Shown in pieces: positions 1-26,372 of a DNA stretch of 30,358 bases (the stretch's first letter is position 1; the number at the start of each line of letters is the position of its first letter). The notes under the pieces were generated by a model. It ran no database searches. It saw only the letters and a list, made by a program, of their open reading frames with translations, and was not told the DNA's origin. Position numbers and translations under genes: made by a program. This stretch comes from a virus (lineage: Duplodnaviria > Heunggongvirae > Uroviricota > Caudoviricetes): IMG/VR virus record IMGVR_UViG_3300029267_003506; one strand, written 5' to 3'.

Positions 1-2
1 CA

Positions 3-260
3 GAAGATGCCCAATTCGCCCTCAATGAAGCACGGGCAATTTGTGAAGACCTGGCAGACAGTGAACTCGACCAAGTGTGGGCGGCGGAAGACTGGCTGGC
101 AGATTGGTCAACCGAACTCACCGGGCGCGAGACAGACGAGGAACTGTCCCGGCTGGCTGACAAAATCCAAGACGACGCCAGTTCGGACAGAGCCAGAGTC
201 CGCGACCTGCTTTCGCACCTTGAGTCGTTGCGGGACGAAGCCAAAGAAAAGGGAGAATAG
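3..260 (+). CDS. 5'-truncated acidic helical hypothetical protein (EDAQFALNEARAICEDLADSELDQVWAAEDWL...)
   Basis: Frame 3 is open from the window edge to TAG at 258-260. The track's 75..260 ORF is its distal part. It is followed after 3 nt by the next ATG, with an overlapping GGAG RBS. Confidence 0.6.
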   Translation, partial: EDAQFALNEARAICEDLADSELDQVWAAEDWLADWSTELTGRETDEELSRLADKIQDDASSDRARVRDLLSHLESLRDEAKEKGE

Positions 261-263
261 GCG

Positions 264-632
264 ATGAAAGAACTCTCCAACGGCGCTCTTCAGGACACGG
301 TAGCCGATTTTCTATCCGATGAAAACCTGGCACAATCCAAAGATGTTCTGAAACGTCAGATGCTCAAACTCATCCAGGACGTCAAAGCAGCCACTGAGAA
401 AGCGTCCCAGGCTGTTCTAAGCCAACAAGACATCGAACAAGTCACCATTTTCGAGCGTAGAAGCGGCACCGACAAGGTTTTTGTCACAACTAATCTCCCG
501 TCCCCGTACACCTATGAAGGAGGAGGTGCCCTTCGATTATCCTTTGACGCCACCAAAGGATACGGAAGAGAATACGCGAAAAAGCATTTCAAAGGCATTG
601 AAATCGAGACTGTACAAGACTCCCACCAGTAG
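264..632 (+). CDS. Hypothetical protein, 122 aa
   Basis: ATG with GGAG just upstream and protein-like composition; no recognisable motif. Confidence 0.8.
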   Translation: MKELSNGALQDTVADFLSDENLAQSKDVLKRQMLKLIQDVKAATEKASQAVLSQQDIEQVTIFERRSGTDKVFVTTNLPSPYTYEGGGALRLSFDATKGYGREYAKKHFKGIEIETVQDSHQ

Positions 633-703: not shown

Positions 704-736
704 AAAAACTGGTTCAGGCGCGTCTCCGAACCAGTT
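704..736 (-). terminator. Rho-independent terminator
   Basis: AACTGGTTC/GAACCAGTT 9-bp stem (736-728/715-707) running into TTTTT on the minus strand. Confidence 0.65.
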
Positions 737-852
737 CTTGCCATGTGGGGGCGATGCTCACCGCCTTGCTTATCCCCGGCATGGTTCAGATGCTGTTGAG
801 GTGAGCACAGCATCCTGGCGGCATTACGGACGCTCGCTTGTGGCCGCGTGTC
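704..852 (-). ncRNA. Candidate ~150-nt structured small RNA (two hairpins with complementary loops plus terminator)
   Basis: Lies between TGGTATAAT (867-859) and a hairpin+T-run (736-704). Stems are 789-796/807-814 and 741-755/772-784, and loops GCTCACC (806-800) and GGTGAGC (762-756) are complementary. No RBS-led ORF. Confidence 0.45.
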
Positions 853-858
853 AGTCTC

Positions 859-867
859 ATTATACCA
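859..867 (-). promoter_or_regulatory. Extended -10 promoter TGGTATAAT
   Basis: Exact TGnTATAAT; member of a recurring (C/T)GGTATAAT motif in this window. Confidence 0.55.
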
Positions 868-5298: not shown

Positions 5299-5406
5299 AT
5301 TATACCGTTTTGGCTGAAAATTGAATTATTTTTCGTGGGTCTTTTCCAAAAAACCTCTCAATCTGTCAAAAAATCTTGTCGAAAAAACCAACCCAAACGG
5401 TATAAT
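5299..5406. promoter_or_regulatory. Back-to-back divergent promoters AAACGGTATAAT
   Basis: CCAAAACGGTATAATT on minus (TATAAT at 5304-5299) and CCAAACGGTATAATT on plus (TATAAT at 5401-5406), in a divergent intergenic region. Confidence 0.65.
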
Positions 5407-9170: not shown

Positions 9171-9782
9171 TCAAATCACCTCTAACCCACGACATACGTT
9201 CGCCAAAGAACCATCAACATTCTTCACCCAAACAAAATGCCCATAAGCCGCCGCATCAGTCCCCTTCGGCCGACGAGGGTCAAACGCAGGACGACGACTG
9301 TGGACAAAAATGTAACTCGGCATGTACCCTCCCCGCCACCAATCCCGCCGCTTCTGACTCTCTAAAAAACTCAAACGTAATAAAAACGCCACCCGCCCAC
9401 CAGGAATAACATCATGAAGCGCCTTCTCAATAAACTCCCGCGCATGCTTGAACGGTGGATTGGAAATAATCACGTCCGGCTTCGCTAAACTCTTTCGCTG
9501 ACTAATATCCGTCCCTAAATAATCACCCGTAAACTCCGCCGGTGAATCACCCCGAATGTCCATAGTCCTCACCTGACCACTAGGAATCATGCGCCCCTGA
9601 ATCAATACCTCCGGATATGGCATCGAATATGACCCCGCTAACCCACCTGCACATGGGTCAAAATAACGAAACTTGCACGAAATAATAGCCGGATACGCAT
9701 CAAAAAAATCAGTAATCGTACCCAGCGGAGTAACGTAATGGTCGTCCTTCAAACGGTCATGATTCTTATTTGCCCTGCTCAT
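9171..9782 (-). CDS. SAM-dependent amino-(N6-adenine/N4-cytosine) DNA methyltransferase, 203 aa
   Basis: D.Y.TP, motif I FDPCAG, motif IV IISNPPF, and VAFLLRLSFLES..R typical of solitary phage MTases. Confidence 0.85.
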   Translation of the reverse strand: MSRANKNHDRLKDDHYVTPLGTITDFFDAYPAIISCKFRYFDPCAGGLAGSYSMPYPEVLIQGRMIPSGQVRTMDIRGDSPAEFTGDYLGTDISQRKSLAKPDVIISNPPFKHAREFIEKALHDVIPGGRVAFLLRLSFLESQKRRDWWRGGYMPSYIFVHSRRPAFDPRRPKGTDAAAYGHFVWVKNVDGSLANVCRGLEVI

Positions 9783-9869
9783 TGGTCCCCCTCACCCGCC
9801 TTGCAATTTTTTCCAGAGATAACCACTCACAATTCCCAGTCGTCGCACTATACTCAGCCAACCCCCGCC

Positions 9870-9965
9870 TCACATCAAAACGATTCGGTCTCCTGTCAGA
9901 ACCCCTCCTATTACCCCTGCCAAAATCCCCAACATAAATACCTTGTCCTTGCTGCTATTCATCAT
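9870..9965 (-). CDS. Possible 31-aa membrane microprotein (MMNSSKDKVFMLGILAGVIGGVLTGDRIVLM)
   Basis: GGAGGGG RBS and one hydrophobic stretch; below the ORF-track cutoff. Confidence 0.45.
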   Translation of the reverse strand: MMNSSKDKVFMLGILAGVIGGVLTGDRIVLM

Positions 9966-10055
9966 ACCCCTCCCTCAAAATATCAAGTGCTCCAGCCACG
10001 TCGTCTCATAAGCACATGAACGGAAACACCTGCAATAAATCACCCACCGCTTCCT

Positions 10056-10253
10056 CTATGGCTTCTCTCGACTGTCCCTAAAATCACAATCCCCATAATC
10101 ACTATACCCCGTGTCCTCTAACTCCCAATCCGGCCACAACTGCTCCGTATCACAACTCCAACACCGAAAACCATCATAATCATACCTCTCCGATAACGTC
10201 ACCCAACACCGCCTCCCACACGCCATACAATCAGCATCCACTATCGTCGTCAT
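10056..10253 (-). CDS. Small 4-Cys Zn-binding protein, 65 aa
   Basis: CMAC..CWSC; GGGGG RBS. Confidence 0.7.
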   Translation of the reverse strand: MTTIVDADCMACGRRCWVTLSERYDYDGFRCWSCDTEQLWPDWELEDTGYSDYGDCDFRDSREKP

Positions 10254-10300
10254 ACCCCCACTCTCTCTTTTCCGATTTTTTCAGCGCGTAATTCAGCCCT

Positions 10301-10607
10301 TTTCGTTTCAAATACGTTCCAAAAAAAGAGTTCCCGAATTTTTTCCAGCACCAGGGATACCGCGCCCGACACTACCCCAGAACCATAACCGACCTATTTT
10401 CCGCCCCATGTATCGCCCCCATATCGCTACATGAATTCGTCCTTTTCGTTCCAAATGCACTCAAAAAAAGGATTCTCGGCTCGCCATCTTCCGTCCTTCA
10501 CAACCTTTTTTCGTTCCAAACGCACTCAAAAAAAGGATTCTCGGATTTTTTCTAGCGAACCGGTAACATAGCCATAGGACCCCTTGAAATGATAACCGAC
10601 CTATTTT
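10301..10607. repeat. Intergenic repeat cluster: 3x TTTCGTT(C/T)CAAA..A7..TTC(T/C)CG and 2x ATAACCGACCTATTTT
   Basis: A-tract units at 10301-10349, 10443-10479 and 10507-10556; 16-mers at 10385-10400 and 10592-10607. Confidence 0.85.
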
Positions 10608-10937
10608 TTCCATGGGCACCCTCCAACCACCCCACCATCCAGGGAGGGGTAGGAGAGTCCCCCGTTGATTCTTTCACTAGAGAGAATCAACACATGGTCA
10701 ATCAGGTTGTAATAAAAGTCGCCCAGGTAGTCGGGCAGGCACAGGATAGTTCGCTCAGAGTTGGCACAGTATCAGCCTATGGAATGATTGTACGACTGGG
10801 TCTGGGATTTGGTCTATGAATTCTGGGAGACATCGTGTATTCAGTCCCAAAGAAAATTTGTGTTTTTCGACGGCTTTTGTTTTTTGGGGTCGGTTATATC
10901 AACGAGAAGACAGGAATATTTGATGATAGGAGGAATG

Positions 10938-11198
10938 ATGAAGATAGAACAAGCCATGGCAGTATGGAACAGTGGAGTCTCTGTGGAAGAAGCCGTCGCA
11001 CGATATGGGTCGGAGATGGCAGACTTCTTTGCTGACTTCGAGCAGGCTGTCGGCTGTCGCTCCTTCACAGTGCATGAACTGCTGAGTGGGCATATTGGAG
11101 CCGTGGCGAGTCCCAAAGAGCTATCAGAGGAATATGCTCGGTGGAAGGGCATCATTGGACCTGGGAAACTCTTGCGTGAGATAATTTCCCAGGGATGA
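10938..11198 (+). CDS. Hypothetical protein, 86 aa (MKIEQAMAVW...)
   Basis: GGAGG RBS at 10929-10933; the track's 10788 start lacks support. Confidence 0.7.
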   Translation: MKIEQAMAVWNSGVSVEEAVARYGSEMADFFADFEQAVGCRSFTVHELLSGHIGAVASPKELSEEYARWKGIIGPGKLLREIISQG

Positions 11199-11212
11199 AT
11201 ATTGCTGTTTTT

Positions 11213-11398
11213 TCAAGAGGCTTTTTCATTGAGCAAGTGTTCTGGGGGCTTATCGTCAGTTCGTCTTCTTGCAGAGCCCCGGGGATGACCATAGGGACAC
11301 CAGATAGTTTTTTCACGGCACCATACGATATCTGCCGTGGTGAAGTCTTGGTGTAGAACTCTTTCGTAACAGCGTTGGCAGATGGCTTTGGTCAGCAT
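11213..11398 (-). CDS. Cys-rich family protein with an internal deletion of the CPYxLEH segment
   Basis: MLTKAICQRC..W..IWCP..KPPEHLL. Confidence 0.7.
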   Translation of the reverse strand: MLTKAICQRCYERVLHQDFTTADIVWCREKTIWCPYGHPRGSARRRTDDKPPEHLLNEKAS

Positions 11399-11484
11399 GA
11401 GTTTTCTGCCGGTTTAAGAATGTGGTGAAACCCAGGGACAATTCTCTAAAACAGCCTGAATTTGGTCGTTTAAGAGCCGCTGTG

Positions 11485-11691
11485 CTATGTTTGGGGCTTT
11501 GGTGATTTCCTAGCCGCCAGGATTGCTTTGTGCCCCTGGAAATGGAACTGAGGGGGTGTCTTGTCATTCTTCTTGGGTTTGGGATGGGGTTCACGCAGTT
11601 TTGATTTCATGGGTCTACGGCAATTCATCAGGACGTGTTCGACATGGTAAGGACAGTCATGGGGGATATGGCTCATCTCTTCCACGGGCAT
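11485..11691 (-). pseudogene. C-terminal fragment of a Cys-rich family gene
   Basis: IPHDCPYHVEHVL is present, but no in-frame CxxC N-terminus (stops upstream). Confidence 0.4.
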
Positions 11692-11786
11692 ATGGGGAAG
11701 GCAACGTGAGATTCCAAGAGAATATGGAGGTTACTGTGGCGCTCATGTTGACTTCCTTGGCTGAAAAGGGCACCCGGTAGAGGTTT

Positions 11787-12536: not shown

Positions 12537-12675
12537 GATGGTTTTCTTTCTTGCGAGCAGTTTTTTGCAGATAGATTATACGAACAAGGGGGACATTTTT
12601 TTCATGGAATTTTACGGATTTTGGGCAATGGGAGCGGTTATACAAGAGGATTTCGTTTAGAGGAGGGCTTTTCAC

Positions 12676-19334: not shown

Positions 19335-19347
19335 ATTATACCATTTT
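19335..19347 (-). promoter_or_regulatory. AAAATGGTATAAT extended -10 promoter for MORN array 1
   Basis: TGnTATAAT about 60 nt upstream of the ATG at 19274. Confidence 0.6.
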
Positions 19348-19699: not shown

Positions 19700-19792
19700 A
19701 AAAAAGGGCACTCGCCGCGTCCAGAGAGTGCCCAATAGACCGGTCCACGCCATCGAGGGACTTACAGGAAGGTCTTGCATGTTCAGAGTGCT
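19700..19792 (-). terminator. Conserved 3' structured element plus intrinsic terminator (copy 2)
   Basis: GGGCACTC/GAGTGCCC stem followed by TTTTTT, with an AGACC/GGTCT stem; paralogous to 891-982. Confidence 0.75.
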
Positions 19793-20933: not shown

Positions 20934-20946
20934 AAAACGGTATAAT
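20934..20946 (+). promoter_or_regulatory. AAAACGGTATAAT promoter for MORN array 2
   Basis: Same motif as the 5299/5401 pair. Confidence 0.6.
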
Positions 20947-24878: not shown

Positions 24879-25340
24879 CTAACCACCAACTACTCTGTCC
24901 TTGACCTGCTTCTCCAGCCGGTCAAGATACCCCCGCACTTGCTTCACCCCAGAAAGCGCTCGCCGCCCCGCTCCCTGATTCTCATAACCACTCTTGACAA
25001 ATAAAGCCACATACAATTTCACCTTGCCAAGAGATTGAGCCGCTACGTTCACTACCTCCTCCGGGTCATCAAGTGGACCAGAAGCCTCCACTTGACCCGC
25101 CTTCACTTCCTTCCAAGCCTTGCGTTGAGATGTGTCTCCACCCTCGTCCCGGACTACCCAATGATCCTCACCATAATCATCTTCCACTAACCACTTCTCA
25201 CCACGCTTCTTCACGGCTCGGTCAATGTAAAAGAAATCCTCAGGTTCATGTAGCATCGAAGCCACATCACCCTCTCTCGGTTTCTCTGCCGCTTCCATCA
25301 TTCGAGCCGCTACCTTGCCGGCTATCTGTTCGCAATCCAT
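24879..25340 (-). CDS. Distant MDER-like protein, 153 aa (MDCEQIAGKVAARMMEAA...)
   Basis: GGAG RBS; ACAATTCTTTGATAT motif 52 nt upstream. Confidence 0.75.
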   Translation of the reverse strand: MDCEQIAGKVAARMMEAAEKPREGDVASMLHEPEDFFYIDRAVKKRGEKWLVEDDYGEDHWVVRDEGGDTSQRKAWKEVKAGQVEASGPLDDPEEVVNVAAQSLGKVKLYVALFVKSGYENQGAGRRALSGVKQVRGYLDRLEKQVKDRVVGG

Positions 25341-25391
25341 CTGTCTCTTCTCCCTTGCCAATCTCCTGAATGCTCTCTACCTCTTCAATAC

Positions 25392-26290: not shown

Positions 26291-26372
26291 TTTTGGTGGT
26301 TCCTTTTCTGGGGGTGATTATAGTTTTTTGGGGGGTGGTATTGGGAAAAATTTTGAAGGCTTCGCGGGTTTT

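Follow-up and report, generated by a model that had tools for sequence, protein, structure and literature searches.

The minus strand of a 350-nt gap between two convergent gene ends (positions 633–982) in a giant phage carries the anatomy of a compact non-coding transcription unit, which is likely to give rise to an RNA of about 147 nt that is transcribed on its own. The recurrent host-type extended -10 element of the phage, (T/C)GGTATAAT, would drive this RNA from near position 852 and transcription would stop at an intrinsic terminator (736–704), the predicted fold of the product being a 5' hairpin followed by two central hairpins and then the terminator. That the RNA is functional, as a lineage-specific base-pairing small RNA whose two central loops are a designed pair, is a quite possible reading of the sequence that is put forward here tentatively. 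Positions refer to the window, that is, the whole stretch of 30,358 nt that was analysed. An earlier note on this DNA had described a stand-alone, so far undescribed small RNA with its own promoter and terminator; the promoter class, the flanking terminators, the lack of a gene call and the absence of a match in Rfam support this description, in which the transcript itself is a prediction. The anatomy of the unit (Table 1), the promoter class, the terminators and the lack of a plausible open reading frame (ORF) are directly seen in the sequence, and it is from them that we infer the transcript.

Table 1. Features of the RNA unit, its flanking genes and the promoter class to which it belongs
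Feature	Position	Strand	Description
296-aa gene	983–1873	minus	upstream of the RNA unit, ends at 983
Terminator of the 296-aa gene (T895)	891–922	minus	hairpin 922–896, dG -21.2 kcal/mol, T5 at 895–891
Promoter	859–888	minus	-35-like TGTCAA 888–883, 18-nt spacer, extended -10 TGGTATAAT 867–859
Transcription start	about 852/851	minus	predicted, 7–8 nt past the -10 box
5' hairpin	847–818	minus	from folding; apex largely unpaired; absent from the earlier note
Hairpin 1	815–788	minus	8–9 bp stem, 10-nt loop GCUCACCUCA at 806–797
Hairpin 2	784–741	minus	outer 5-bp stem, inner G4/C4 stem, large apical loop 771–756
Terminator of the RNA (T708)	704–739	minus	stem 736–706, dG about -15 kcal/mol, T5 at 708–704
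122-aa gene	264–632	plus	from ORF list and gene calls; orphan, convergent, ends at 632
Class promoter sites, window	859–866, 5299–5306, 5399–5406, 12575–12580, 19335–19342, 20939–20946, 26317–26322		
Class promoter sites, beyond the window	L317 8488, 11947, 14505, 15659		

Genomic setting

The source of the window is a giant, uncultured phage, an assignment with which PHROG matches to phage proteins agree, and small RNAs are almost uncharted in phages of this kind. Identical DNA is found on contigs of up to 117–133 kb from several metagenomes, the genome being larger than 100 kb; the source sites comprise samples 3300017989, 3300029258, ERZ27256770 and SRR6963311 with its sister runs. The first of these samples (Ga0180432) also gave large contigs of the multi-subunit-RNA-polymerase phage lineage (PMC7481178).

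The gene for a 266-aa DUF8280 protein followed by the 122-aa gene forms a two-gene cassette (window 1–632 and L317:7035–8207) that is inverted within a long, co-directional, otherwise minus-strand array. Since the 122-aa gene is the last of this inverted cassette, the RNA has no same-strand gene after it, and the next 1.2 kb on the RNA strand is antisense to the 122-aa/DUF8280 cassette. No packaging genes were seen near the locus by protein annotation and gene calls, and neither tRNA nor tmRNA was detected by ARAGORN. Both genes of the cassette are orphans, with no close relatives in 5.8 billion proteins. The 296-aa protein has relatives at the domain level only, encoded on short contigs that are not syntenic, and no relatives of the 296-, 486- and 1018-aa proteins were found in IMG/VR. 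ERZ27256834 contains a relative of the neighbouring protein with 58% identity.

A recurrent promoter class

The -10 box TGGTATAAT named in the earlier note is present at its place on the minus strand, and its core recurs along the genome. The window contains five copies of GGTATAAT against 0.31 expected, a count reached in none of 100 shuffles, and all seven of its TATAAT sites, five of which read GGTATAAT, stand immediately before transcription units and are oriented toward them. In 99 kb, made up of the window and 69 kb walked beyond its start with the pieces joined, 22 TATAAT sites were found, 15 of them as GGTATAAT and about half as TGGTATAAT. An ORF led by a ribosome-binding site (RBS) begins within about 20–210 nt downstream of 21 of these sites; the single exception is the site at 864–859, downstream of which a terminator stands at +150 and no RBS-led ORF is found. 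The recurrence and the placement of the sites assign the 864–859 promoter, as judged from sequence, to the recurrent (T/C)GGTATAAT class of the phage, which is of the host sigma-70 type, and its being the sole one of the 22 without a protein gene makes the boundaries of the unit unusually clear.

The consensus of the class is roughly CAACC-N3-5-(C/T)GGTATAAT-G, often with A-tracts before it, and the 864–859 promoter is without the upstream CAACC/A-tract block common to the strongest members. General phage biology suggests that this class is active early and that the host polymerase transcribes from it. A separate AT-rich motif before other genes, pointed out in the earlier note, would fit a second, phage-specific promoter class. 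With a host-type promoter consensus now defined for this phage, annotation of the remaining genome is made easier.

Terminators and a duplicated 3'UTR element

A scan of the whole window for clean hairpins followed by T-runs yielded roughly eight clean terminators, among them T895, at the end of the 296-aa gene, and T708 (-15.1 kcal/mol), at the end of the RNA. The upstream operon ends at T895, 25 nt short of the promoter, so that the RNA unit is insulated. For T708, a 9-bp stem with a T-run had been described; the T-run is there, but the stem comprises 11–14 bp. The U-tract of T708 is placed on the strand of the RNA, and the plus-strand tail reads only TTCTTG, so that any termination toward the convergent 122-aa gene would be weak; judging from this tail, T708 may also act weakly in reverse for that gene. 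Elsewhere in the window, two very strong tandem intrinsic terminators (24816 and 24759, minus strand; -23.4 and -28.4 kcal/mol) are found about 60 nt apart downstream of the gene at 24879–25361.

The 3'UTR element of the 296-aa gene together with its terminator (982–891) is duplicated after another gene at 19792–19700, on the minus strand and with about 80% identity, and compensatory changes in two stems are seen in the alignment of the copies. The second copy also has a TGGTATAAT promoter, about 360 nt further on and past an intervening 93-aa gene. The duplication excludes the RNA body; comparison of the promoter-proximal region with the locus of the second element revealed no homology beyond the -10 box, and a search of IMG/VR with the pattern of the element gave no relatives.

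This duplication, with a TGGTATAAT promoter nearby in each case, keeps alive an explanation by modular recombination, according to which a modular promoter copy landed beside the duplicated 3'UTR-terminator element and the resulting unit is a by-product without a function of its own. T708 would then mainly end the convergent cassette and shield against antisense transcription, and the complementarity between the loops (see below) would be due to chance. The inversion of the flanking cassette in a co-directional array is in line with such an origin. The orientation of T708, with its U-tract on the strand of the RNA and a weak tail on the opposite one, argues against it, and so does the fact that no other promoter of the class is without an ORF. 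All in all, a unit of this kind appears rather unlikely, although it deserves serious consideration.

Predicted fold of the RNA

The best fold and the centroid both correspond to a linear row of four hairpins (Table 1). Hairpin 1 and its loop are present as listed in the earlier note, with stem pairing probabilities above 0.9 and a loop that is unpaired with a probability of about 0.98. Hairpin 2 is also present and its apical loop holds GGUGAGC (762–756), but the inner stem is weaker than had been described. In the best fold this heptamer is partly occluded (unpaired probability 0.33–0.97), the cost of opening it being 4.2 kcal/mol. The whole unit has a folding z of -2.48, most of which comes from the terminator; without it, the body (852–738) shows a z of -0.63, the same stability as shuffled sequence. 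Thermodynamic stability is therefore no argument for a structured RNA, and a body whose fold is not special counts in favor of a unit without a function of its own.

Complementarity between the two central loops

The segment GCUCACC in the loop of hairpin 1 (806–800) pairs with GGUGAGC in the loop of hairpin 2, with a duplex energy of -11.4 to -12.8 kcal/mol. The perfect 7-nt complement claimed in the earlier note exists, but its true extent is 8 nt (UGCUCACC/GGUGAGCA). It continues through one G-U pair and one mismatch into an alternative helix of 11 pairs (9+2), a nested arrangement that joins the 5' arm and loop of hairpin 1 to the loop and 3' arm of hairpin 2 in a fold only 2.5 kcal/mol above the best one. 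Shuffles of the loops that keep their composition reach seven Watson-Crick pairs with a P of about 0.005, and an accessible complement of at least 7 nt appeared in 2 of 600 dinucleotide shuffles of the whole body (0.3%). Among about 4,700 pairs of best-fold hairpin loops across the window, two other 7-nt cases were seen, both of them AU-rich, and complementarity alone would thus not single out the site; as promoter and terminator already delimit the unit without reference to the loops, the within-unit probability (about 0.003–0.005) is the more relevant figure. The loop complement is probably not accidental, and the rarity of an accessible complement of 7–8 nt stands against a by-product unit in which it arose by chance.

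Kissing complexes of 6–7 bp stack as a quasi-continuous helix. Hairpins 1 and 2 are spaced by only 3–4 nt, and with this geometry a full kiss within one molecule would seem to be under strain; reciprocal pairing in a dimer would be compatible with it, and so would the nested helix.

The nested helix could be part of a conformational switch or attenuator, with an exchange between the two-hairpin fold and the long helix tuning read-through of T708. Polymerases reading through would enter the cassette antisense and then the main-direction genes downstream. The small energy difference between the two folds and the reach of the complement (9+2 pairs) are consistent with such an exchange, as is a 59-nt gap, without a TATAAT promoter, before the next same-direction gene. 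However, the terminator is placed outside the alternative helix, so that no antiterminator is obvious, and no same-strand gene is found for 1.2 kb. Besides, Rfam gave no match to a riboswitch family, and neither a ligand nor a factor is indicated. A switch is improbable on these grounds.

The possibility raised in the earlier note is that of a self-assembling structural RNA in which loop 1 of one molecule would kiss loop 2 of another, giving dimers or rings like those of the phi29 pRNA, a molecule that multimerises by loop-loop pairs and whose multimerisation is driven by their complementarity (PMC2241910, PMC3753930). The candidate RNA resembles the pRNA in being phage-encoded, in its size (about 150–170 nt in the case of the pRNA) and in having two mutually complementary loops, and both the stability of the Watson-Crick complement and, by geometric reasoning, the short spacing that disfavors an intramolecular kiss would suit a reciprocal dimer. 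The pRNA, however, is built around a three-way junction, has a CE/D-loop pairing of 4 bp and occurs in small phages of the phi29 type, which possess a dedicated packaging motor, whereas the candidate RNA is a row of hairpins with a 7–8 nt complement and no predicted three-way junction, comes from a giant, non-phi29-like phage with no packaging genes seen nearby, and does not match the pRNA family of Rfam. Loop 2 is moreover partly occluded, and no conservation was found. The loop complementarity stands, but the alternative nested helix explains it nearly as well, which leaves complementarity as the only basis of the analogy. Self-assembly is accordingly very unlikely, and oligomerisation in the manner of the pRNA is unsupported speculation.

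A further property of the two loops is their resemblance to sequences of translation initiation. Loop 1 agrees with the anti-Shine-Dalgarno sequence at the 3' end of 16S rRNA at 8 of 10 positions, and loop 2 with the full Shine-Dalgarno complement at 10 of 12. Equally good matches occur 43 (loop 1) and 7 (loop 2) times per 99-kb strand, and at the length of the RNA the resemblance would arise by chance in roughly 6% and 1% of cases, respectively, figures that are non-independent. The resemblance is a lead, short of a result. An RNA built for self-pairing, be it through loop kissing into a structural homodimer or oligomer, or as a mimic of the RBS and its 16S partner that helps the phage redirect translation, has very little probability.

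For the preferred reading, a functional small RNA, base pairing would be the most likely mode of action. The exposed C/U-rich loop of hairpin 1, which resembles the anti-Shine-Dalgarno tail, would serve as the seed and the Shine-Dalgarno-like loop of hairpin 2 as its complementary internal partner. By forming the alternative helix this partner could mask the seed, or it could join two molecules in reciprocal pairing; targets, like self-pairing of whatever kind, belong to the predicted part of the scheme. Should the loop pairing be functional, the unit would supply a natural example of a compact RNA that pairs with itself; otherwise it adds one more orphan to the small RNAs of phages. Its clear boundaries would make the RNA easy to synthesise for assays of dimer formation, ribosome or mRNA binding, promoter and terminator.

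Relatives and candidate targets

A search of the whole window against Rfam 15 (cmscan, gathering scores) gave no matches, and in a scan of 550–1050 that admitted E values up to 10 the sole match was a spurious one to an lncRNA, on the other strand, in agreement with the description of the RNA as belonging to no known family. The earlier note had also proposed a homologue search; no relative was found in collections of phages and plasmids, in IMG/VR, in JGI metagenomes or in GTDB. In particular, blastn against INPHARED phages and PLSDB plasmids detected no homologue; exact and two-loop patterns gave 79 pattern matches in IMG/VR, none with the hairpin context or blast similarity, and the two-loop pattern gave 115 chance matches each in JGI metagenomes and GTDB genomes, again without hairpin context or similarity. 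No paralogue was found in the 99 kb of the same genome by blastn-short, and a covariance model found only the RNA itself. Finding neither conservation nor paralogues favors the by-product origin discussed above. The copies of the phage from several samples are identical across 633–982 and therefore offer no variation to analyse.

The seed of loop 1 was compared with 38 translation-start regions in the window, and the best interaction reached -17.2 kcal/mol, a value that 26% of shuffled seeds equalled. Over the 99 kb, the longest antisense complement is a perfect one of 13 nt, with an E value of about 0.18, near chance, between the apex of the 5' hairpin (about 839–827) and L325:18816–18828, which falls at +53 to +65 in the gene for a 117-aa protein (L325:18763–19116). 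Complements of 10 nt to loop 1 were found at four places on mRNA-sense DNA, all inside ORFs, and G-rich 8-mer complements of this loop are only 2–3 fold enriched on mRNAs. Three other resemblances were discarded: that of loop 2 to the translation start of the gene at 9782, for which 6% of shuffles score equally; that to a CRISPR type I-E repeat (GGGGAUAAG), in which inspection by eye showed no upstream half of the repeat hairpin; and a CsrA site (AGGAUG), located within a stem.

Comparison with known RNA systems

Stand-alone base-pairing small RNAs are known from phages and prophages, e.g. DicF, IpeX and the OOP RNA of lambda. The candidate RNA shares with them a sigma-70-type promoter of its own, a size of about 150 nt, stem-loops that include an exposed loop, a Rho-independent terminator with a U-tail and the lack of an ORF; that is, the sequence holds the promoter and Rho-independent terminator around a non-coding unit by which such RNAs are recognised. 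It differs from them in having no sequence or Rfam relationship and in being found in a single phage lineage only. The small phage RNA c4 of P1/P7 (RF01695) is similar in that its loops are complementary to sites in RNA of the same strand, one of them RBS-like. The target sites of c4 are, however, placed in the downstream icd-ant mRNA, whereas the complement of the candidate RNA is within itself, with no ORF after it and no Rfam match. The unit also recalls phage morons, since it is self-contained, with a terminator upstream and one of its own, between unrelated genes, but its cargo would be a non-coding RNA and not a protein gene.

Two further types of RNA fit poorly. The large self-assembling RNAs ROOL, GOLLD and OLE gave no Rfam match and have several hundred nucleotides, as against about 147 nt in the unit. 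A riboswitch or attenuator leader would call for a regulated same-strand gene downstream, where 1.2 kb antisense to the cassette is found instead.

Coding potential and other features of the genome

No gene was called in 633–982 in any of three independent assemblies, and the frames inside the transcript have only 7–22 codons and no RBS, which bears out the earlier observation that no RBS-led ORF is placed inside the unit. One long frame crosses the terminator into the antisense of the 122-aa gene. When the gap was compared by tblastx with the remainder of the window, no decayed coding remnant was detected. A small protein gene, using a 22-codon frame from AUG 782 or a 52-codon frame from AUG 744, is highly improbable: open frames do exist, in a phage with many tiny genes (42–46 aa), and loop 2 contains a Shine-Dalgarno-like run, but AUG 782 is without an RBS, AUG 744 is buried in a stem 12–13 nt past that run, with a frame that goes through the terminator, and neither frame is predicted by gene callers. 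The ribosome-binding sites of the phage's own genes are ordinary GGAG/GAGG.

At a larger scale, the plus strand between 2000 and 10000 has a GC skew of -0.33 to -0.41, a very strong asymmetry in which the coding strand is G-rich, and the sign of the skew flips near 11,000, in an ORF-poor stretch (about 9783–11786). A homologue of ribosomal protein L7/L12 (PF00542) is encoded at L320:15394–15741, on the minus strand of the locus, within a small inverted block of six genes.
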